A DNA stretch of 64,000 nucleotides, taken from a virus. This document shows, piece by piece, positions 1,302 through 40,958 of the stretch. A program made the position numbers and the translations under genes. The notes beneath the pieces were generated by a model. That model worked only from the letters and a program-made list of their open reading frames with translations, was not told the origin of the DNA and made no database searches. The first letter of the stretch is position 1, and each line of letters starts with the position of its first letter. The stretch lies in IMG/VR virus record IMGVR_UViG_3300010244_000001; one strand, 5' to 3'.

Positions 1302-1322
1302 TAAAAAATTTTTAAAAGGGTA

Positions 1323-1351
1323 TTGACAAACAATCAATACCCTGATATACT
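1323..1351 (+). promoter_or_regulatory. sigma-A-type early promoter
   Basis: TTGACA(1323-1328)-N17-TGaTATACT(1343-1351); -35 lies in 5' arm of hairpin 1318-1342. Confidence 0.8.
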
Positions 1352-3768: not shown

Positions 3769-3787
3769 AAAAGAATCAAATAGGGTA

Positions 3788-3816
3788 TTGACAAACAATC
3801 AATACCCTGATATAAT
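3788..3816 (+). promoter_or_regulatory. sigma-A-type early promoter
   Basis: TTGACA(3788-3793)-N17-TGaTATAAT(3808-3816); hairpin 3783-3807. Confidence 0.8.
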
Positions 3817-4089: not shown

Positions 4090-4126
4090 GACATTACAAA
4101 ATAAAAACTTAAGGGAGATGATTTTA

Positions 4127-4693
4127 ATGAGTAACCAAGAAAGTAAATTTGAAAATTATTATGAGTACATACAGTCTGAAGCTAATGATTTATTGGATGA
4201 TGTAGAACGTGATATTAAAGATGTGTTAGAGACTGGTACACTGGAATTACCTGATTTCTTTGATGAGTTGGTACATGATTGGGTAGACAATGATTTTATC
4301 TATATAGACTTATTAGATAGTGCTCACATTTTACAACAATCGAACAACGTAGAATACGATTCAGGACTATGGGAAGGGCAAGAACCTATTGAAGCAGTTA
4401 AAACACAAGCATTCTTTACTTACCGTATGGGCTTGATGTTTGAAGTTGAGGACTTAGCTAAAAACATGTTAGACACCTTTATGAATGAATTAGGAGATGA
4501 AATGGAAGACGTTGAGGAAAAAATGGAAGAGATAGATAAAGAGATTGATGAAATTAATGAAGATGAGGAAATGGCAGAATCTGAGAAAGATGAGAAAATA
4601 AACGACCTTGAGAAAGATAGAGAGAAACTTGATGAGCGTTATGATGACCTAGACGACACTAGAGAAAACGCAAGACAAACATACGATAACTAA
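4127..4693 (+). CDS. hypothetical highly acidic early protein, 188 aa
   Basis: SD AAGGGAGATGAT then ATG 4127 (track start 4088 overlaps the -10); E/D-rich C-terminal half. Confidence 0.7.
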   Translation: MSNQESKFENYYEYIQSEANDLLDDVERDIKDVLETGTLELPDFFDELVHDWVDNDFIYIDLLDSAHILQQSNNVEYDSGLWEGQEPIEAVKTQAFFTYRMGLMFEVEDLAKNMLDTFMNELGDEMEDVEEKMEEIDKEIDEINEDEEMAESEKDEKINDLEKDREKLDERYDDLDDTRENARQTYDN

Positions 4694-6255: not shown

Positions 6256-6306
6256 GAAAGTACAATAAATAAGGGAGATGATTAATATGGATAGAAAAGG
6301 TTTAAA

Positions 6307-6561
6307 GTGAGTAACGAAACAGTAAACAGGATGATGGAAGTTGCAAGTGAAGCAGGTATCGAATTTGAAGTCTTTGAGAATGTATTGAACGACCATGTAA
6401 TATTCTATGATGCTAGTAAAATGAAACTAAAAGGTGTAAGACGTTCTAACTTTATCATCATTCAGGACACGTTCTTAAATTCTCAAAACAGTGAACTGAG
6501 AATGTTTGTTACAGATAGTGAAAAGAAAATGAAGGAATACGAGCAAGCCTTCAGTTACTAA
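6307..6561 (+). CDS. hypothetical early protein, 84 aa, GTG start overlapping the stop of a 7-codon leader ORF (6287..6310)
   Basis: canonical SD AAGGGAGATGAT serves ATG 6287 (MDRKGLK*); main ORF is in the -1 frame from GTG 6307 (GTGA overlap). Confidence 0.6.
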   Translation: MSNETVNRMMEVASEAGIEFEVFENVLNDHVIFYDASKMKLKGVRRSNFIIIQDTFLNSQNSELRMFVTDSEKKMKEYEQAFSY

Positions 6562-6615: not shown

Positions 6616-6655
6616 GAAATTATAAGATAACAAATAAGGAAAGGAATTGATAAAC

Positions 6656-7270
6656 ATGAGTATGGAAAAGAAATTTATTAACGAACTAAACAATGAGGAA
6701 CTGACGAAAGTATTGAAGAACAATACTAAACTGAAAGAAGACGTAATGGATAGTGCTTTAGATACGGAAATGTTCTGGATAAGGGAACAGTTAGAATACT
6801 TACAAGATGCTTTATTAGATTGGAGCATATCCCCTTCAGGAACAGCTTATTCCAATTACATGAAAATTAAAGATGACAGTACCTTTATTGAAAGTGTCGA
6901 ATCATTAGAAAAGGCAGTACCTGCACTGATTGTGGATGACTTCCCTTTACTGAATAAAGCATTGGAAGTCAAAGAAAAACACGAAACAACGGATATGGCA
7001 GAAACAGATGATGATGAGATTGAAGAAATGGAAGATGAATTAGAAACGGTTGCAGAAGACTTGGCAGGTAGAATCGTATATAGATGGAATCGTCAATTAG
7101 ACTACTGCTTCCTTGATGAAAACCTGATTGACTACTTCCTGGACTTCTATGTAGATGAACGAATGGATGATAACAGTGTTTACATTCTTGTAGATGGGGA
7201 TGTAGAGACCTATACAGACTCAGACTATGAACTATATGAAGACGTAAGCTATACAAAAACGTTTAACTAA
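6656..7270 (+). CDS. hypothetical acidic early protein, 204 aa
   Basis: SD AAGGAAAGGAATTGAT then ATG 6656 (track TTG 6647 lies in the SD). Confidence 0.7.
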   Translation: MSMEKKFINELNNEELTKVLKNNTKLKEDVMDSALDTEMFWIREQLEYLQDALLDWSISPSGTAYSNYMKIKDDSTFIESVESLEKAVPALIVDDFPLLNKALEVKEKHETTDMAETDDDEIEEMEDELETVAEDLAGRIVYRWNRQLDYCFLDENLIDYFLDFYVDERMDDNSVYILVDGDVETYTDSDYELYEDVSYTKTFN

Positions 7271-7293
7271 AATTTGAATAAGGGTATTGACAG

Positions 7294-7322
7294 TTGACAA
7301 ACAATCAATACCCTGATATAAT
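7294..7322 (+). promoter_or_regulatory. sigma-A-type early promoter (duplicate -35 at 7287)
   Basis: TTGACA(7294-7299)-N17-TGaTATAAT(7314-7322). Confidence 0.8.
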
Positions 7323-22297: not shown

Positions 22298-22867
22298 TTA
22301 TAGCATATTACCATACTTATCTCGGTTTCTTCGTAACTTCTCATAACAAGCCTGTATGACCTTCGCATCATATAAAGCTGAATGTTTATTCCCTTTAATT
22401 GGAGTATCAATAAATGCTTCCCTACTAATATCAGGGTCGATACCGTGAACCTTAAATAAAGGAGCGATGTCTAGAAATATATAATTCACGTTATCTGGTA
22501 AGTCATGTGCTCCTCCAAGTAGCTCATTCATAAGTACTCCGTCATAGAATCCAGTGTCAAAATAGAACTCTACTCGTTTGAATTGCTTTAGCCACTCCCG
22601 TAAAGCCTTACTTATCTCTAAAAAAGTACCCTTAATAAAACTGGTATCTCCTGTAGTCTGCATACCAAAATTAAATTTATCGTTAAAAATAAGGTTGTCT
22701 ATAACATGCTCCTGAATAAAGTTATCAGGTTGGTGGTCTATTTGACCTTGACTAAAATCTGAGAACTCACAGTAAAATTCCTTCCCATTGTCTGCTACAA
22801 TTCCTAAGCTTACTGGTGTTGTGTACTGGTGTAACCCAGTAAATTCAAAATCTGCATAAAGATTCAT
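22298..22867 (-). CDS. DnaQ-like DEDDh 3'-5' exonuclease, 189 aa
   Basis: ADFEFTG (Exo I DxE) and HSALYDAKV (Exo III H-x4-D). Confidence 0.65.
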   Translation of the reverse strand: MNLYADFEFTGLHQYTTPVSLGIVADNGKEFYCEFSDFSQGQIDHQPDNFIQEHVIDNLIFNDKFNFGMQTTGDTSFIKGTFLEISKALREWLKQFKRVEFYFDTGFYDGVLMNELLGGAHDLPDNVNYIFLDIAPLFKVHGIDPDISREAFIDTPIKGNKHSALYDAKVIQACYEKLRRNRDKYGNML

Positions 22868-25468: not shown

Positions 25469-26164
25469 TCAGTCTGGCATTTCGTCTACCCAAGAAGAGA
25501 AGTATCCTCGATGGTTGACAGAAAGGTTGGCAAAGTCCACGTCAGTAAATGTATCTGATTCTATCCCTCTTTTAAAATGGTGTTTTAACTTGGAGAAACC
25601 AGAATCATTTACGTCTATGTCAATTTGACCATTGTGACCTGCCATTAGTATATAGCAGTCATCTTCCAATCTTGTTAGAGTTTTCTTGATTTCTTTCGGT
25701 TTCCCGTTCTGAATTTCATCCACTATAACCCCTTTGTTTTCAAGTGTCCTACCTCTAAGGTATGTATGAGCTACTACGTTATAGTCACCTTCAAAATCCT
25801 CATCACAAATTCTATCAATATCTAAACCTTGAGGGTTAACACCAGCCCTTACCAATGCTTCTATAAAAGGTCTCGCATACTCTTTTATTTTATCAGAAAC
25901 GTCACCCGGTAGGTATCCTAGAGATTCCTCCTGTACAGGGAACACAACATAGTAAATCCCATTAATATGTCCCTTATCCAATAGAGCTTTCATTGCTTGG
26001 GTTGCAACTGTTGTCTTTCCTGACCCTGTTCTGGAGTCCACAACAACTCGACCTTTTTTATACAGTTTGTTAACCATATCTTCTTGGTCTCTATCTAATT
26101 TGTTCTTATACGGGAAATCCCTTTTAGTCAGTTTACTCAAATCCAATGGTTCTTTATTTGCCAT
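25469..26164 (-). CDS. PhoH-like ATPase, 231 aa
   Basis: Walker A SRTGSGKTTVA; Walker B GVIVDEIQN. Confidence 0.7.
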   Translation of the reverse strand: MANKEPLDLSKLTKRDFPYKNKLDRDQEDMVNKLYKKGRVVVDSRTGSGKTTVATQAMKALLDKGHINGIYYVVFPVQEESLGYLPGDVSDKIKEYARPFIEALVRAGVNPQGLDIDRICDEDFEGDYNVVAHTYLRGRTLENKGVIVDEIQNGKPKEIKKTLTRLEDDCYILMAGHNGQIDIDVNDSGFSKLKHHFKRGIESDTFTDVDFANLSVNHRGYFSSWVDEMPD

Positions 26165-34816: not shown

Positions 34817-35107
34817 TTAATCCTCGTTAGGTGAACGACCACCAAGCCTTCGTTGGTTATCCATACGTTCTTCTACGTCTTCTGCTTCTTCTTCAGTTAA
34901 ATCCTCAAATAAATCTCTGTACCCTTTATCGAATACATCTTCCAACTCCATAAGTTTTGCAGGTCTTGGAAACTTCAATCCATTTTCCCAGTAAGATACG
35001 GTTGAGTAATTAACACCCATTCTATCCGCTAAACTGTAAATTGTTAAACCTGCATCCAAACGATACTTCTTCAATCTTTTTGGTACTTCCATTTTCTTTC
35101 CTGCCAT
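34817..35107 (-). CDS. XRE-family helix-turn-helix regulator, 96 aa
   Basis: LKKYRLDAGLTIYSLADRMGVNYSTVSYWENG. Confidence 0.8.
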   Translation of the reverse strand: MAGKKMEVPKRLKKYRLDAGLTIYSLADRMGVNYSTVSYWENGLKFPRPAKLMELEDVFDKGYRDLFEDLTEEEAEDVEERMDNQRRLGGRSPNED

Positions 35108-35147
35108 TTATATCATCTCCATTTGTTTTATTTTGATTATTAACCTC

Positions 35148-35176
35148 ATGTTAACATTTTGTTGCTCTTTTGTCAA
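35148..35176 (-). promoter_or_regulatory. sigma-A-type promoter for the XRE gene
   Basis: minus sense TTGACA-N17-TGtTAACAT. Confidence 0.6.
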
Positions 35177-35243
35177 CCTCTTCTTAGTTTTTGTTACCTG
35201 AGAAGATGTTATCAGCAGTTATTCAATACTGAATGTATTTCTT

Positions 35244-35272
35244 ATAGTAGCAAGATATTGGACATTTGTCAA
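35244..35272 (-). promoter_or_regulatory. second upstream promoter (minus)
   Basis: minus sense TTGACA-N17-TACTAT. Confidence 0.45.
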
Positions 35273-35348
35273 TAGTAATTTACTTCTGTACTATTTATTA
35301 CAACCTAACTTTTATATGTCACGATTTACAACCACTTTTAAAGGTTCT

Positions 35349-35455
35349 GTGAGAATACTTTAAAAATACCCTAACAAATACCCACGAATAGAATTAAAAA
35401 CGATTCTACCCCTTCATATTTGTCGATTTGAGCTCTTACTGTATCTGAGTATAGG
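35349..35455 (+). repeat. dispersed non-coding element, copy C
   Basis: see 10681..10797. Confidence 0.8.
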
Positions 35456-35521
35456 GTACATTCTCCATATTTGTTCTCAAATCTGTATGGGTTTAATATT
35501 TATATTTAATTACGTATAGTA

Positions 35522-35537
35522 TGTGAATAAATTCACA
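35522..35537. promoter_or_regulatory. palindromic site TGTGA-ATAAAT-TCACA
   Basis: perfect TGTGA-N6-TCACA inside a roughly 130-bp unit repeated at 35915-36060. Confidence 0.5.
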
Positions 35538-35931
35538 ATCCCTTACTAATCTCTTATTACGGGTTCCCTCTGCCTGACTCTTCCTCCAATTTCTTCGGTA
35601 GTATTTTCAACCATTTCTGTATTTAATCTCCGTCATATCAACATTTTTACTAATTTCTGATTCAATCATTACCGTATTCCTATTTTAAGTCCTCTGTATA
35701 TACTCCGGTATTAATACTCTATATATTACTCCGGAGTAGAATACCGGAATATATACAAGGAAGATAAAATCAAAAGGATGTCATAAAAATAACCCTAAAT
35801 TTCTGTAAGTACTGGTATATCAGCAATTAAATACAGACAAACAATCTTTATTGTATGTTATCTCTGCAAAACAAAGAGGGAAAGAGTCAGAAATAGAATG
35901 TATGTTTAGATGTACGTAATTAAGTATAGAT

Positions 35932-35947
35932 TGTGAATAATTTCACA
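35932..35947. promoter_or_regulatory. palindromic site TGTGA-ATAATT-TCACA
   Basis: second perfect TGTGA-N6-TCACA, same position in the repeated unit. Confidence 0.5.
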
Positions 35948-36334
35948 TGTCTCAATTAAATTTTAGTTACGGTTTCCCTTTTTCTGACTGATTTCTGTTC
36001 TTACTCTTCATTCATTTTACTCTGATTCAGAAAACTCAGTATTTAATCTCTGATTCAGGGAAACATTGCTTATAGAAAATATGATGTCTGTATTTACAGT
36101 ACGTCATATCAAGGTTTTAAAGTAATTAGGACATATACGTGTCTCAATTTCTTACTTATCTACTCTGTATATACTTATATAAATAATACTAAGAGAATAT
36201 TAAATAGAGTATAATAAGAATACTAATTATAGATTTGGATATTAGAATGTATATTAGTAGGACGTGTCAAGAAATCGAACAAATGTTCCACTAAGAAAAA
36301 GAGAAAAGAAATTTAAAATTTTTAATAAAACCTC

Positions 36335-36363
36335 TTGACTCTTTCAGAAGACCATGTTATAGT
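36335..36363 (+). promoter_or_regulatory. sigma-A-type promoter of the vWA/TROVE-like gene
   Basis: TTGACT(36335-36340)-N17-TGtTATAGT(36355-36363). Confidence 0.7.
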
Positions 36364-36460
36364 ATGGTTACAGTTTTTAAACACACATTACTCATTACCG
36401 ATTTTATTTTGTAACACTGTAACTCGTAAACCGAAACTAGTAGCTTATGGATAAAAACAA

Positions 36461-36519
36461 GAGACCCTAACAGCAAAGACATCAAACGTATACCTCCTAT
36501 AGTTAATACACAGGGTCTC
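36461..36519 (+). ncRNA. Y-RNA-like helix module 1 (in the 5' UTR of 36535..38079)
   Basis: GAGACCC-TAACAGCAAA-loop-GGGTCTC. Confidence 0.5.
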
Positions 36520-36534
36520 GAAAGGAATGATAAA

Positions 36535-38079
36535 ATGGGATTTTATGATAAATTACAAGAAGAAAATACGAAAACATTTACTCAGAACGGTGCTCCAACT
36601 TTCAGTTCTTCATTAAATAAGAACTTGGATTTCTTTGCATTAGCAGGAGCATCAAGGAACTGGAATGAAATAGATATTAAAGAGAAGTTTCTTAAGGCTT
36701 TTAACGAAGACCCAGAAACTGCTTTACGTAACTTAGTAAGACTTAGAGACATTCGTAATGGAGGACTAGGTGAACGGAGAGCTTTTAGAGCTTCTGTAGA
36801 CTATCTTATCCATTCAAGTGGGAAAGAGCAAATACTTTTAGGGTTAATAGAATACTTGCCTTATATCGGACGATTTGACGACATCATTTACATCTTCTCG
36901 GAAACAGAAGATAAAGAGATGAAACATAAAATTGCAAGGATTCTATCTGGACAGCTACTCAGAGATTTTGAACATAAACGGAAAAACGAGTCATCTTCTC
37001 TTTTGGCTAAATGGATGCCTAGCGTAAATACTTCTAATAGTGAAGTTAAACAGACAGCTAAAGAACTTATTTATTACATGTACGGAGAATGGTCACCTGA
37101 GAACGAGAAGATGTATCGTAAAACACTATCATCATTAAGAGAACACATCAACGTAACAGAAAAACGTCTTACGAATAAAGATTACAACAAGATTAACTAT
37201 TCTCAGGTACCATCACTTGCATCTATTCGATACCGTAATGCTTTCATGCGTAATGATGAAGAACGATACAGAGAGTATTTAAACGGACTAGATACGGGTG
37301 AGACGAAAGTAAATTCTTCTGTAACTTACCCTTATCAGATTGTTGAGGCTTATAGATATAGTGGTATGGGAGAAGACAAACTACTAGAAGAAGCTTGGAA
37401 GTCTTTACCTGACTATATCGGGGATAATGACGAACGAGCTGTTGTAGTGGCAGATACAAGTGGTTCGATGGTGGGAACACCAATGAATGTATCTATTTCC
37501 TTAGCTATTTACTGTGCTCAACGACTAAAAGGAGAGTTTCACGGGAAATACATCTCTTTCTCAACTAACCCAACAATTAACGAAGTATATGATAATGCAT
37601 CTTTGAAGGACAACATTGATATTGTACGGAGGACAGATTGGGGAGCTAACACGGATTTCAATAAAGTTCTCAAACTCATTCTTGATACAGCAGTGAGTAA
37701 CAACATGTCTCAAGATGATATACCTAATAAAATTATCTGCTTATCGGATATGGAATGGGATGTAGCGAACGGAGGTTATGGTTTCGGTACGAGAAGGGCA
37801 GAAGAGCTCAACGAAACAACGTATAATCGTGCTAAGCGCAAGTTTGAAGAGCATGGTTACACGATTCCTCAAATGGTGTTCTGGAATGTAGATGCTAAAG
37901 GCAGTACGATTCCTGTACGTAAAGACGAAGTAGGTACTGCATTAGTAAGTGGTCTAACACCTGCTATATTTGAGACAGTCTTGAGTGGAGAGATTATGAA
38001 CCCAGAAAAGCTTATGTTAGACACTCTGTATCAGGATAAGTTTGACTACGTTAAAGACATCCTAAAACACGAGGTATAA
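36535..38079 (+). CDS. vWA-domain protein with Ro60/TROVE-like or DUF2828-like N-terminal region, 514 aa
   Basis: FTQNGAPTFSSSLNKNLDFFALAG, RDIRNGGLGERRAF, MIDAS-like VVVADTSGSM. Confidence 0.85.
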   Translation: MGFYDKLQEENTKTFTQNGAPTFSSSLNKNLDFFALAGASRNWNEIDIKEKFLKAFNEDPETALRNLVRLRDIRNGGLGERRAFRASVDYLIHSSGKEQILLGLIEYLPYIGRFDDIIYIFSETEDKEMKHKIARILSGQLLRDFEHKRKNESSSLLAKWMPSVNTSNSEVKQTAKELIYYMYGEWSPENEKMYRKTLSSLREHINVTEKRLTNKDYNKINYSQVPSLASIRYRNAFMRNDEERYREYLNGLDTGETKVNSSVTYPYQIVEAYRYSGMGEDKLLEEAWKSLPDYIGDNDERAVVVADTSGSMVGTPMNVSISLAIYCAQRLKGEFHGKYISFSTNPTINEVYDNASLKDNIDIVRRTDWGANTDFNKVLKLILDTAVSNNMSQDDIPNKIICLSDMEWDVANGGYGFGTRRAEELNETTYNRAKRKFEEHGYTIPQMVFWNVDAKGSTIPVRKDEVGTALVSGLTPAIFETVLSGEIMNPEKLMLDTLYQDKFDYVKDILKHEV

Positions 38080-38216
38080 ATTTTTTCAATAAATTTCTCT
38101 AAAAGGGTATACAAACTGTAAAATTGTGGTATAATATAAGTATAGACTAAACATAAGTAGTTCCATCGGTAAGTAAGTTATTGTATGTATCTTACTTACC
38201 TCCTTACAAAGTTATA

Positions 38217-38264
38217 AAGACACTAACAGCAAATAAACTTACAACTTACATTATAAGGTGTCTT
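38217..38264 (+). ncRNA. Y-RNA-like helix module 2
   Basis: AAGACAC-TAACAGCAAA-loop-GTGTCTT; preceded by a 10-bp hairpin 38168-38200. Confidence 0.5.
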
Positions 38265-38318
38265 GATAATAACTATATAGAAAACAGCCAAAAGCGATAA
38301 ATGTTATAATACAATTAT

Positions 38319-38382
38319 AGGCTCTAACAGAAACAATACTTAATACCCACCACGCCATTTGTAGTGAATAACAAAAGAGTCT
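38319..38382 (+). ncRNA. Y-RNA-like helix module 3
   Basis: AGGCTC-TAACAGAAAC-loop-GAGTCT (one G-U pair). Confidence 0.45.
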
Positions 38383-38428
38383 TGTTAGAAAATTGAATTT
38401 CACCTAAAGTAGTAAGCATAGTATAAAT

Positions 38429-38584
38429 AAGACACTAACAGCAAACCATAAAAATAATATTCCACTAGTCTAGGAAAGTTGCTGGTTCGAGCTCAGCTCA
38501 TTGGGGTTACGAGGGGAGCCCCGATGATGGTGTAACTGGATAACACGTAAAACAATGTGTCTTGAAACCCCCCCCCCTTTTTTT
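38429..38584 (+). ncRNA. Y-RNA-like module 4 enclosing a tRNA-like element (YrlA-like), ending in C10T7
   Basis: AAGACAC(38429-38435)...GTGTCTT(38557-38563); T-arm mimic GCTGG-TTCGAGC-TCAGC 38481-38497; 8-bp stem CATTGGGG/CCCCGATG. Confidence 0.55.
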
Positions 38585-38697
38585 ATTACTCTCATTCAGT
38601 GTATAATGTTTTCCTTCCTTTCATTGTATGCTGAATGAGGGTAGTAACCCTCATCCATGCAGGAACATCCCATACGGATGATGAAGTGGTAGTAATC
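38584..38697 (+). ncRNA. additional structured RNA candidate
   Basis: nested stems ATTACT/AGTAAT, CTCATTCAG(38591-38599)/CTGAATGAG(38631-38639), GAGGGT/ACCCTC, CATCC/GGATG; no ORF. Confidence 0.35.
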
Positions 38698-38808
38698 AAA
38701 ATAAATTTAAAAGAGTCATGAACTATTTGTTCTAGAGGTGAGTTTGGTCAACTCACTTCAAATTCCACCTTTGAATCAGTGAGTGGGTGAGAGCACTTAC
38801 TGTACACG

Positions 38809-38846
38809 AATCCTACAGGTTTTACTAACTTGTAGGATTTTTTGTG
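38809..38846 (+). terminator. rho-independent terminator closing the ncRNA cluster
   Basis: AATCCTACA/TGTAGGATT plus T6. Confidence 0.8.
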
Positions 38847-38954
38847 TTTCCTCTATATTATAGAGGTAGATGTTCATACACGCTTTTTTAGAAGTAAACT
38901 ATGTTATAATAAGTATAGACGTATTTAGAACGGTAAAGGGGTAGTTTATAGCTT

Positions 38955-39290
38955 ATGGCATCATTCAGTGAAGACGAGAAATGGTTAGAGGCTAAGAAGA
39001 TAGTAGGTGCGAACAACTCTTGGATAGATATTATTAGTGTATATAGATATCTAGGAGGTAAGAACGTCTTTGTCTATATAATTGGAGATAAAGACAAAAG
39101 GCAGATTGTAGATATAGTTGATGATGAAAATAACGTTCTACTGATAAGCAAATACGGGGAACCAATTATAGAAGACTATGATACGGTAGAGAAAAGCAGA
39201 AAATCATTCAACTATTCAGAAGACATTGAAGAAAGAACTTATTATATAGCAGGTAAGGAAGCATCAGTAATAGAAGAAAGTCAGAGATAG
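38955..39290 (+). CDS. hypothetical protein, 111 aa
   Basis: ORF preceding the portal gene. Confidence 0.65.
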   Translation: MASFSEDEKWLEAKKIVGANNSWIDIISVYRYLGGKNVFVYIIGDKDKRQIVDIVDDENNVLLISKYGEPIIEDYDTVEKSRKSFNYSEDIEERTYYIAGKEASVIEESQR

Positions 39291-39308
39291 GAAGATGGTG
39301 AAATCATA

Positions 39309-40958
39309 ATGGGAGTCCTTGATTGGCTACCGAATAGAAAAAAGGTAGAAGATAATATTGTCAGGGTTGATGATGATTTATCTAAAGCAATACGTAAAAT
39401 AGAAGATGACCAGATTCAGAAGAGTAAGGGTAACAGTAAAGCAAAAGCATATGAGGAGCCTTTATTAGCTAACTTCTCAATGAACCCAGAGTACAAGGAA
39501 GTTCCTTCAGTAAATGGCATACATAACCTCTTAGAGACCCTCAGAGGTTGGTCTCGTAAGAACATAATCCTAAATTCAATTATAAATACTCGTGTCAATC
39601 AGGTGTCTTTATTTTGTGCTCCAGCCCGTTATAACGAAAAAGGGATTGGATATGAAGTTAGATTAAAAGACCCTTTACAAACACCAAGTACACACGATGA
39701 AGCAAATTTCAAGCGTATTGAGAATTTTCTAGAGCATACAGGGAAAGATACGAAGGACTTTACAAGAGATAATTTCAGAACATTCGTAAAAAAGCTTGTA
39801 AGAGACCGTTTGATTTACGATAAAATTAATTTTGAGCTTACATACGACTCTAAATCAAACTTGAATAATTTTAAGGCTGTAGACGCTTCAACGATATACG
39901 TAGCTGTAGACGAGGAAGGTAGAGAGCCTACTGGAAAGAACGCTTCAAGGTATGTTCAGATTCTTGACAAAGTGAAAGTAGCTGAGTTTAAGGCAGATGA
40001 AATGGCTTGGGAAGTCCATAATCCACGTACAGATGTTACAGTAGGTAGATATGGATACCCAGAGTTAGAGATTGCTATGAATCATCTCCAGTATCATGAG
40101 AATACAGAGATATTTAACGCAAGGTACTTCTCTCAAGGTGGTACTACAAGAGGTCTTCTACATATTAAAACTGGACAAGAACAGTCACAACAAGCTTTGT
40201 CTGCATTCCGTAGAGAATGGCAGTCTATGTTTAGTGGTGTAAACGGAGCCTGGAAGATACCCGTTGTAACTGCTGAGGACGTGAAGTTTGTTAATATGAC
40301 TCAATCCTCTAAAGACATGGAGTTCGAGAAGTGGCTTAACTATCTGATTAACGTTATCTCAAGTTTGTATCAGATAGACCCTTCTGAAATTAACTTCCCT
40401 AACCGTGGAGGTGCTACAGGAAGCTCTGGTAACACTTTAAATGAGAGTGGTACAGAAGAGAAGTTTAGGAACTCTAAAGATAAAGGTCTTGAACCTTTAC
40501 TTAAGTTTATCGAAGACGCAATAAATAAGTATATCGTTTCTCAGTTTGGAGACAAGTATACCTTTAAGTTTGTCGGTGGAGATACTGAAACGGAAGCTGA
40601 GATTATTAACATGCTTGCTGAAAAATCTAAGATTGGTCTTACAATTAATGACGTTCGTGAAGAGCTTGGATACCCTGAAGTTGAGGGTGGAGATGTAACT
40701 CTTGCAGGTGTACACGTACAACGTTTAGGTCAGTTAATGCAAGAAGAGCAGATTCAACAACAGAAACAAATGGAACAACAACAGTTCATAGCCCAACAAA
40801 CAGGATACAATGGAAATATGGATGACGTTAACGGTAAGGATTCATTTAATCAAGGTGTTGGTAAGGACGGTCAGACGAAACAAGAGAACAATACGAACAG
40901 TACTCCTCAAGGTGGACAAGGAGATAATGAAAACGTAACGAATGATTGGGAGATTTAA
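39309..40958 (+). CDS. portal protein (by size and position), 549 aa
   Basis: first large gene of a portal-protease-scaffold-capsid series; Q/N-rich tail. Confidence 0.6.
   Translation: MGVLDWLPNRKKVEDNIVRVDDDLSKAIRKIEDDQIQKSKGNSKAKAYEEPLLANFSMNPEYKEVPSVNGIHNLLETLRGWSRKNIILNSIINTRVNQVSLFCAPARYNEKGIGYEVRLKDPLQTPSTHDEANFKRIENFLEHTGKDTKDFTRDNFRTFVKKLVRDRLIYDKINFELTYDSKSNLNNFKAVDASTIYVAVDEEGREPTGKNASRYVQILDKVKVAEFKADEMAWEVHNPRTDVTVGRYGYPELEIAMNHLQYHENTEIFNARYFSQGGTTRGLLHIKTGQEQSQQALSAFRREWQSMFSGVNGAWKIPVVTAEDVKFVNMTQSSKDMEFEKWLNYLINVISSLYQIDPSEINFPNRGGATGSSGNTLNESGTEEKFRNSKDKGLEPLLKFIEDAINKYIVSQFGDKYTFKFVGGDTETEAEIINMLAEKSKIGLTINDVREELGYPEVEGGDVTLAGVHVQRLGQLMQEEQIQQQKQMEQQQFIAQQTGYNGNMDDVNGKDSFNQGVGKDGQTKQENNTNSTPQGGQGDNENVTNDWEI

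Follow-up and report, generated by a model that had tools for sequence, protein, structure and literature searches.

Ro60, an autoantigen in lupus and Sjögren's syndrome, and its Y RNAs, which depend on Ro for their stability, belong to the biology of RNA quality control. To our knowledge, the field has so far been built on a single protein family with a single type of binding site. We analyzed a 64,000-nucleotide stretch of viral DNA (IMG/VR record IMGVR_UViG_3300010244_000001; hereafter the window), in which the gene for a 514-aa DUF2828 protein is accompanied by four copies of a structured RNA module. It is probable that this locus encodes a phage ribonucleoprotein (RNP) of the Ro60/Y-RNA type, in which a protein of a divergent lineage is paired with a cognate RNA family that appears to be undescribed.

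Among the closest described systems is the bacterial Ro protein Rsr with its RNAs YrlA and YrlB, from Salmonella and Mycobacterium smegmatis (PMC4201824). YrlA carries a tRNA-like domain whose arms run in the order variable (V) arm, T arm, acceptor stem and D arm (Chen 2014, PMC4201824), and in M. smegmatis a precursor upstream of rsr yields both YrlA and YrlB by processing. As summarised from Stein 2005 and Chen 2013/2014 in two papers on such systems (PMC4201824, PMC12135203), the contacts of Ro60 with the conserved Y RNA stem are mainly to its 5' strand; in the Ro60 paradigm as outlined there, the Y RNA regulates access to the protein ring and recruits partners via its variable end. Phages carry such proteins as well. 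Thermus phage phiLo encodes phiRo60, which has been proposed to hijack the host RNA-decay machinery against defence (Nucleic Acids Research 2025, PMC12135203), and TROVE-encoding mycobacteriophages, CcrColossus and Bacillus phage G are further carriers of Ro60/TROVE proteins (PMC12135203). In the Felixounavirus Bas63, the structurally Ro60-like gp130 is encoded directly upstream of the phage tRNA cluster and experimentally counters the Ppl defence; the authors of that PhageMaP study guessed that some of the neighbouring 'tRNA genes' might be Y RNAs (10.1101/2024.10.10.617714). Phage Ro60 with Y-like RNAs is already known as a kind, as is the Ro likeness of the DUF2828 family to annotators.

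The locus studied here consists of the protein gene, one RNA copy 15 nt upstream of it and three copies 138–484 nt downstream, all on the + strand. Each module has a 7-bp terminal stem formed by the RNA ends, a predicted single-stranded ACAGCAA motif 2 nt after the 5' arm, and a variable insert, which is short in copies 1–3. The bit scores listed here are those of covariance model R2, which was built from 39 full-length short modules of other phages and none from the window.

36535–38079, + strand: Ro60-like protein, 514 aa, with a helical N-terminal domain (DUF2828) and a C-terminal vWA/MIDAS domain (DUF7788), from Pfam, PHROG 850, AlphaFold2 and Foldseek
36461–36519, + strand: RNA copy 1, in the 5' untranslated region, GAGACCC-UA-ACAGCAAA-35 nt-GGGUCUC, then G; strict descriptor, R2 31.0 bits, E 3.7e-5
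38217–38264, + strand: RNA copy 2, short type, AAGACAC-UA-ACAGCAAA-24 nt-GUGUCUU, then G; strict descriptor, R2 39.6 bits, E 2.3e-7
38318–38383, + strand: RNA copy 3, divergent, UAGGCUC-UA-ACAGAAAC-...-GAGUCUU, then G, with 6 pairs; R2 16.4 bits, E 0.19
38429–38563, + strand: RNA copy 4, long tRNA-like type, AAGACAC-UA-ACAGCAAA-insert-GUGUCUU, then G; strict descriptor, R2 15.0 bits, E 0.43

A Pfam search of the protein matched DUF2828 (PF11443; 115.6 bits, cut-off 29, E 3e-33) and DUF7788 (PF25043; 153.2 bits, cut-off 27.1, E 8e-45), and the PHROGs search returned phrog_850, 'RNA-binding protein' (1.7e-129). An AlphaFold2 model was obtained with a predicted local distance difference test score of 91.7 and a predicted template modeling (TM) score of 0.91. 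When this model was compared with the PDB by Foldseek, results showed that the top four matches were all Ro60 (1yvr, 1yvp, 9l5y), full length, with TM 0.53–0.58, E 8e-8 to 4e-6 and probability 1.00. Xenopus Ro60 was the best of them (1yvr; E 8e-8, TM 0.57, full length), and the Ro60 of Thermus phage phiLo was matched with E 1e-6 (9l5y); matches ranked below the Ro60 chains covered the vWA half only. We concluded that the Ro likeness of the protein is real, at the level of the predicted fold only. A preliminary description of this DNA, made from its letters, had associated motifs of its N-terminal region with Ro60/TROVE or DUF2828 proteins and had read a MIDAS-type vWA motif in it. The motif was confirmed (AVVVADTSGSM), all five MIDAS positions (D307, S309, S311, T373, D405) being invariant in 56 homologues; DUF2828 and the Ro fold were both recovered, and the TROVE part of the association found no counterpart in the sequence. 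Basic residues R41, R74, K159, R195 and R202 of the N-terminal domain were also invariant across homologues. By tblastn, the protein family is present in 711 of 50,697 phage records, including those of Escherichia (120), Mycobacterium (95), Salmonella (77), Vibrio (56) and Listeria (54). Giant viruses also encode DUF2828-fold proteins, and according to the Pfam description of DUF2828 so do eukaryotes.

We scanned the window with a strict descriptor of the module: a 7-nt arm, NN, ACAGCRA, 15–260 nt, a complementary arm with at most one G-U, and then G. In the 64 kb it found exactly copies 1, 2 and 4 on the + strand and none on the − strand; 200 dinucleotide shuffles of the window gave a mean of 0.16 matches, and none reached three. 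Model R2 ranked copies 2, 1, 3 and 4 as the four best matches in 128 kb, copies 2 and 1 being significant and copies 3 and 4 marginal. The low score of copy 4, of which only the 5' half was aligned, arose because its 110-nt insert is longer than the short-module model allows. A repeat search grouped all four copies as one direct-repeat family, and the string CTAACAGMAA occurred six times in the window against 0.54 expected. The minimum-free-energy fold of copy 1 is the terminal stem (z = −2.2); copy 2 gave z = −2.4, and copy 4 gave z = −2.7, with none of 200 shuffles folding as well. Copy 3 is the weakest, with a fold no more stable than shuffles (z = −0.1), the motif ACAGAAA, a U-U outermost pair and one G-U pair. 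Its arms match AAGGCUC/GAGUCUU modules of the two closest relatives of the locus, L003 and L004, which are syntenic with the window and encode proteins 64–65% identical to the one studied here.

The four copies lie where the preliminary description had placed them and have the arms that it gave, copy 3 being extended to include its U-U outer pair. The two arm differences between copies 1 and 2, both compensated (G-C to A-U, C-G to A-U), were likewise confirmed from the sequence. The modules do not resemble intrinsic terminators, in that their 3' arms are followed by G and no T-run is present. Rfam 15 contained nothing relevant in the window at the gathering threshold, nor in 35000–39500 at E ≤ 10, and on four related loci it called only tRNA and transfer-messenger RNA (tmRNA), with no family matching the modules. 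The canonical Ro-binding sequence (GGUCCGA in metazoa; GNCGAAN0-1G in YrlA/YrlB) is not in the modules, which have ACAGCAA instead. Chen et al. searched only TROVE-annotated genomes and found a motif different from this one (PMC4201824).

Family statistics were computed on 92 sequences, comprising 84 IMG/VR and other loci, seven further cultured phages, and the window. Modules were present at 80 of the 92 DUF2828 loci, with one to eight copies per locus and typically two to four; the consensus was (A/U)AGRCNC-NN-ACAGCAA-W ... GNGYCU(U/A)-G. The view that a multi-copy RNA set is unusual therefore has to be given up, canonical systems also having two or more Y RNAs. ACAGCRA occurred 499 times on the gene strand of these loci versus 76 times on the opposite strand, and a complementary 7-nt arm followed 234 occurrences versus about 37 in arm-swap and shuffle controls. 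Modules numbered 240 on the gene strand and 24 on the opposite strand, family-wide. Compensatory changes were seen at all seven stem pairs, with four to six pair types per position, and the covariation score was 0.845 versus 0.21 after shuffling and 0.07–0.19 after sliding. Since the alignment behind this score (A2) comprises sequences selected for pairing, it informs through its diversity measures alone; in a leave-one-out test, the omitted stem position still paired in 80–86% of candidates. The RNA helix, for which selection was first proposed from copies 1 and 2, shows covariation in both related and distant phages. G-U pairs are frequent and the strand bias is tenfold, which points to RNA and speaks against a repeat at the DNA level. 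The region 3' of the ACAGCAA motif is poor in G, and lengths are bimodal, at about 50–80 nt and 120–140 nt. The flanks are conserved: the 5' arm is preceded by A/U, and in 87% of modules the 3' arm is followed by G.

The protein gene and the modules occur together, on one strand, in phages whose hosts belong to many phyla. Phages with modules infect Listeria, Enterococcus, Staphylococcus, Bacillus, Mycobacterium, E. coli, Campylobacter and Sinorhizobium. Listeria phage A511 and Enterococcus phage EFDG1 each have three modules in the gap just upstream of the gene, and their proteins are ~40% identical to that of the window. In mycobacteriophage Rumpelstiltskin, three modules fill an unannotated gap just downstream of the gene (L086 5463–5719). 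In E. coli Felixounavirus 'dune', the modules lie between annotated tRNAs and are not tRNA genes (L085 5712–5778, 6266–6333, 6355–6480). Bacillus phage Thrax1 has six, and Campylobacter phage CP8 and Sinorhizobium phage phiM7 also carry modules; those of Staphylococcus phage S-CoN_Ph1 overlap tiny 'hypothetical' coding sequences. Vibrio phage ValKK3 offered a doubtful leader candidate only.

Three further observations concern the modules of other viruses. A giant-virus contig (L097, IMGVR_UViG_GVMAG-M-3300017963-53_000001) has three full modules on its − strand, at ~714–660, 424–372 and 172–118, of the form AAGACAC-UA-ACAGCAAU...GUGUCUUG and alternating with tRNA-Leu and tRNA-Arg genes. The contig is from a genuine giant virus, as it encodes an NCLDV (nucleocytoplasmic large DNA virus) major capsid protein and an Rpb3/Rpb10-like RNA polymerase subunit; its stored 11.3 kb are without a DUF2828 gene. 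In EFDG1, all three modules have a conserved hairpin before them, GTTCC...GGAAC with a CTAACAGG-like or CTACTAGG-like loop. Lastly, several coding calls overlap modules, namely the tiny coding sequences of S-CoN_Ph1 (L088 5510–5599, 5729–5857), gp166 of phiM7 (L091 2063–2182) and a 45-codon N-terminal extension of protein P0002 (L004 4001–4138). These calls are probably spurious, and the true start of P0002 appears to be the ATG at L004 4139.

Copy 4 encloses four elements that correspond to the arms of a tRNA:

38460–38476, + strand: V-arm or anticodon-arm-like hairpin UUCC-ACUAGUCUA-GGAA; in the minimum-free-energy and centroid folds, and the anticodon arm called by ARAGORN in the permuted construct
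38481–38497, + strand: T-arm mimic GCUGG-UUCGAGC-UCAGC; read from the sequence, and the T arm of the ARAGORN cloverleaf
38498–38527, + strand: acceptor-stem-like helix UCAUUGGGG/CCCCGAUGA, 9 bp, closed by a loop; in the minimum-free-energy and centroid folds and the ARAGORN cloverleaf
38530–38546, + strand: D-arm mimic GUGU-AACUGGAUA-ACAC; in the ARAGORN cloverleaf of the permuted sequence

In its native linear order, copy 4 was not recognised as a tRNA by ARAGORN or by Rfam RF00005. When it was circularly permuted in silico at the acceptor loop, ARAGORN called a cloverleaf tRNA, and the call held even with the native hairpin as the anticodon arm; the permuted construct was assembled by hand, so this evidence is supportive and not independent. 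The D arm did not form in the unconstrained minimum-free-energy fold. The insert of copy 4 is a circularly permuted tRNA-like domain with the YrlA-type arm order of V, T, closed acceptor stem and D. The T-arm mimic and the YrlA-type likeness had both been noticed in the preliminary description, and the folds and the permutation extend them to a full domain.

Similar domains were found elsewhere in the family. In L004 the minimum-free-energy fold is a cloverleaf on the basal stem, with a 5-bp anticodon-like stem, a T arm, a loop-closed 7-bp acceptor stem and a D arm, and two of the EFDG1 modules enclose T and D arms. Family-wide, T-arm-type hairpins occurred in 39 of 218 unique modules versus 0.46 expected. 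About 40 short modules have an anticodon-arm-like hairpin with a 7-nt loop, most often CUUUUAA (13), CUGUUAA (8) or CUUGAAA (7); examples are L060 3806–3867, L055 307–366, L023 3876–3932 and L037 2119–2180. The CUUUUAA loop is Lys-UUU-like and the CUGUUAA loop Asn-GUU-like. This hairpin is not in copies 1–3 of the window. These likenesses point to anticodon-arm mimicry by the short modules of other phages, and typically one RNA per locus is a tRNA mimic.

We examined the association of modules with the gene by a reciprocal test, in which IMG/VR was scanned for the exact 14-mer AAGACACNNACAGCAA, and stretches with a full AAGACAC-type module were compared with those having the 14-mer without a 3' arm. 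The full module was found in 43 stretches; 20 of these hold a DUF2828 gene, on the same strand in all 20 and at a median distance of 461 nt. Where the 3' arm was missing, the gene was present in one of 77 stretches. This result bears on a rival explanation in which the modules serve phage operons of small RNAs and tRNAs as signals for processing or stability (RNase punctuation or protective end-stems), independent of the DUF2828 protein and linked to it through a shared tRNA region. Such an origin would suit the interleaving of modules with tRNA genes in many phages, the tRNA clusters that adjoin the locus in most of them, and the conserved flanks, which could mark cleavage sites. In L003 and L004, for instance, one leader module and three to four downstream modules are followed by ~20 tRNA genes, and in dune the DUF2828 gene is directly upstream of the tRNA cluster. 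However, the window lacks these genes (ARAGORN found no canonical tRNA gene in it, and there was no Rfam tRNA match), yet it keeps four modules tightly around the protein gene. In the Staphylococcus phage and the mycobacteriophage the modules also abut the gene, where the Rumpelstiltskin stretch is without an annotated tRNA and that of S-CoN_Ph1 has one, ~2 kb off. Moreover, an invariant 7-nt single-stranded motif, kept from phages of Actinobacteria to those of Campylobacter, fits a phage-encoded reader better than diverse host RNases, and the full module predicts a nearby same-strand gene where the 14-mer does not. We therefore regard the operon-signal explanation as unlikely.

The position of copy 1 raises the question of regulation in cis. 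Two further features define its setting:

36335–36363, + strand: putative sigma-70-type promoter of the Ro-like gene (TTGACT, 17-nt spacer, TATAGT, TG 5' of the −10 box); consensus scan 10/12
36521–36537, + strand: Shine-Dalgarno sequence AAAGGA and AUG of the Ro-like gene, read from the sequence and beginning 2 nt after the 3' arm of copy 1

The predicted leader is ~165 nt long and contains copy 1. In both L003 and L004 a promoter of the same type lies upstream of a leader module that abuts the Shine-Dalgarno sequence. Modules end at most 40 nt from the start codon at 18 of the 92 loci (15 nt in the window, 17 nt in L003); L004, outside this count, has a module end at 4122 and its ATG read at 4139, ~16 nt on. 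In phiM7 a mini-module abuts the Shine-Dalgarno sequence, and the 3' arm of the ValKK3 candidate would overlap the AUG. These positions are what one would expect if the modules were solely binding sites in mRNAs or precursors, for autoregulation and for control of neighbouring genes, and not trans-acting small RNAs. But most modules are away from any start codon, many of them downstream of the gene or among tRNAs; an operator would not need elaborate tRNA-like inserts; and several modules have −10-like boxes of their own, such as the extended −10 box TGTTATAAT (38302–38310) just upstream of copy 3. Regulation in cis as the sole function is thus very improbable. That the repeats act as DNA (operators, recombination or homing sites), or are chance features of AT-rich intergenic DNA, is scarcely credible: they are inverted repeats in intergenic DNA near an HTH_3 regulator gene (34817–35107), but the strand bias, the common G-T 'pairs' (for example, at position 4 in L003 and L004) that would be A-C mismatches on the other strand, the arm spacing of ~25 to 120 nt, the rarity of descriptor matches in shuffles, the tRNA-like inserts, and the retention of the module in phages whose loci show no HTH neighbour all speak against it.

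Several points weigh against a Ro60/Y-type RNP. At the level of sequence, the protein had no TROVE match (PF05731) in Pfam at E ≤ 1, phmmer of the protein against PDB sequences found nothing, Ro60 included, and a profile of the 56 homologues matched only a vWA domain in the PDB, again no Ro60. The structural match itself, at TM 0.57 and a root-mean-square deviation of ~8 Å, would allow a ring geometry more or less close to that of Ro60. It is co-occurrence and analogy that suggest binding of the RNAs by the protein. The conserved RNA motif differs from every known Ro-binding site. No strict module was found at 12 of the 92 loci, and 23 of the 43 full-module stretches have no DUF2828 gene in their stored DNA, many of these modules being near a stretch end. 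The pairing statistics of A2 are partly circular, which does not apply to the leave-one-out test, the strand bias or the cross-model test. The degenerate copy 3 may be in decay. Lastly, gp130 of Bas63 countered Ppl on its own, from a plasmid or inserted in T7 (10.1101/2024.10.10.617714), so at least for this activity the phage RNAs are possibly not needed. Weighing these points, we still hold that the locus is probably a phage RNP of the Ro60/Y-RNA type; the fold, the covarying RNAs and the tRNA-like copy 4 largely support this interpretation, which the preliminary description had also reached.

How such an RNP might work can be outlined by analogy with Ro60 and Y RNA. The ring protein would recognise the basal stem and the single-stranded ACAGCAA, and the variable insert would be the effector end, presenting a tRNA or anticodon-arm mimic to tRNA-handling enzymes or nucleases, gating the access of other RNAs to the ring, or both. 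Because the 3' arm of copy 1 is 2 nt from the Shine-Dalgarno sequence, bound protein could repress its own translation; alternatively, cleavage of the mRNA leader may release copy 1 as one more small RNA. The role would probably be control of RNA integrity, especially that of tRNA, during infection, together with counter-defence. This role is suggested by the tRNA-cluster neighbourhood, by an RtcB gene 1.3 kb downstream in A511, and by the action of Bas63 gp130 against Ppl; since gp130 alone sufficed there, the RNAs may modulate rather than enable activity. A wider synthesis is possible, but we consider it doubtful and put it forward tentatively: DUF2828 proteins and ACAGCAA-stem RNAs would form a second, sequence-distinct, pan-viral lineage of Ro/Y-type RNPs, found in phages of at least five bacterial phyla and with the module present three times on a giant-virus contig. 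The RNAs would load the ring with mimics of tRNAs or anticodon arms; against host immunity that targets tRNAs, these mimics would act to decoy, sense or repair the damage, and the leader copy would autoregulate the system.

The + strand features of the locus, from promoter through leader, 514-aa open reading frame (ORF) and noncoding DNA with RNA copies to a terminator, form a compact unit. The 876 nt of noncoding DNA 3' of the ORF contain, besides copies 2, 3 and 4, the following:

38108–38135, + strand: promoter-like site (TATACA, 16-nt spacer, TATAAT, TG) ahead of the downstream RNA cluster; 10/12, consensus match only
38168–38200, + strand: 13-bp hairpin between the promoter-like site and copy 2; inverted repeat I21, fold z = −2.6
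38564–38850, + strand: structured noncoding tail with a C10/T8 tract, a 26-bp hairpin (38583–38647), more hairpins and an intrinsic terminator; fold z = −7.8

A terminator scan of 35000–39400 found a single terminator-like site, at 38808–38840 and followed by a U-run. The tail, which may or may not belong to the Ro-like system, probably marks the 3' end of the RNA transcription unit. It has no homology in L003 and L004, where ~20 tRNA genes occupy the equivalent position; blastn of 38564–38955 against the relatives matched only the terminator and a late-promoter segment. Beyond the noncoding DNA lie a small ORF and then the portal gene. Megablast detected no near-identical DNA to the locus among GenBank phages. 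An RNA-surveillance theme had also been proposed for the rest of the window. The PhoH-like ATPase (25469–26164) and an Rv2179c-like 3'-5' exoribonuclease (22298–22867) do exist, but they support the theme weakly, lying 10–14 kb off on the other strand.

Other observations were made at and around these loci. About 100 nt upstream of the gene promoter (window 36213–36308) are 75% identical to L003 3602–3700 and include GACGTGTC.AGAAATCGAACAAATGTTCCA; this segment may be an operator for the divergent HTH_3 regulator. A first covariance model (R1), with the loop cut out, was dropped when it recovered only a fragment of copy 2 and gave an unrelated repeated hairpin as its top matches, because real inserts of 25–120 nt were penalised too heavily. 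These false matches brought to light a hairpin AAGGGTATTGACA-N8(14)-ATACCCTGAT with four copies on the + strand of the window (1314–1346, 2753–2785, 3779–3811, 7278–7317) and a TTGACA-like box within its 7-bp stem, which may represent a family of regulated early promoters. The tRNA arrays of L003 (~6260–6440) and L004 (~6620–6860) contain a conserved non-tRNA element (...CTTATCGTGAC...TACTTGACGAAAG...) with no Rfam call, which may be another noncoding RNA. In EFDG1, Rfam called a tmRNA encoded by the phage itself (140.6 bits), on the upstream side of the tRNA cluster; this tmRNA and the hairpins ahead of the EFDG1 modules were noted at L002 110–460 and 3400–3800. The 152-kb relative L003 has a gene for a small acid-soluble spore protein (PF00269; 3211–3456) shortly upstream of the locus, which hints at a spore-forming Firmicute host for this phage group.

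The significance of these results is broader than the window because they define a family of candidate RNA partners for a phage protein that is very widespread. The RNA family, with its ACAGCAA motif, architecture and distribution, was not described in the searchable literature or in Rfam 15, which is not proof of novelty; as far as that literature shows, an RNA family with a different recognition motif is apparently what is new here. A structurally Ro-like family that is unrelated in sequence appears to have its own cognate small RNAs, and proteins annotated as 'RNA-binding protein', 'DUF2828' or 'hypothetical' gain concrete candidate partners. The modules also account for stretches left without annotation in several phage genomes, and for a number of tiny ORFs that are probably spurious. 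They provide testable RNAs for the reported anti-defence activity of Bas63 gp130, and tractable carriers include Listeria phage A511, Felix-like coliphages, cluster L mycobacteriophages, and Staphylococcus and Campylobacter phages. Mimicry of tRNAs or anticodons on a Ro-like scaffold is suggested as a widespread viral strategy, and the ACAGCAA motif may guide searches in giant viruses and eukaryotes.

Compared with the Rsr/YrlA-YrlB systems of Salmonella and M. smegmatis (PMC4201824), the locus has the same elements: a protein combining a helical ring-type domain with a vWA/MIDAS domain, at least two small RNAs encoded on the strand of the gene and no more than a few kb from it, and RNA ends that pair to a basal stem whose 5' strand carries a conserved motif, ACAGCAA being the putative binding site here. 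One RNA has a tRNA-like domain in the order V, T, acceptor stem-loop and D while others are short, and the frequent linkage to RtcB is seen here in A511. In contrast to Rsr, the window protein is of the DUF2828/DUF7788 type with no detectable TROVE sequence signature; its RNAs have ACAGCAA in place of GNCGAAN0-1G, and one copy is in the mRNA leader beside the Shine-Dalgarno sequence. The short RNAs of other members of the DUF2828 family also differ in that they often have anticodon-arm-like hairpins.

The phiLo system (PMC12135203; PDB 9KOP, 9L5Y) is similar in pairing a phage protein of the Ro60 fold with two RNAs, Yrl1 and Yrl2, just upstream of its gene, and phiRo60 was the second-best structural match to the window model. 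It differs in that phiRo60 came from UniProt, as a homologue of Ro60, and the CGAA motif is present in its Yrl RNAs, whereas the window RNAs are without CGAA and the window protein has 17% identity to phiRo60 over the structural alignment. The 'Ro-like RNA binding protein' of cluster L mycobacteriophages and PHROG 850 are of the same family as the window protein (tblastn, 32% identity over 98% of the query); the 'Ro-like' entries of actinobacteriophages differ in being annotation only, with no RNA partner found annotated or described. Lastly, we infer that Bas63 gp130 is a DUF2828 orthologue, as its gene position equals that of the DUF2828 gene in Felixounavirus dune. No RNA partner was identified in Bas63, whereas the modules of dune pinpoint candidate RNAs for this group.

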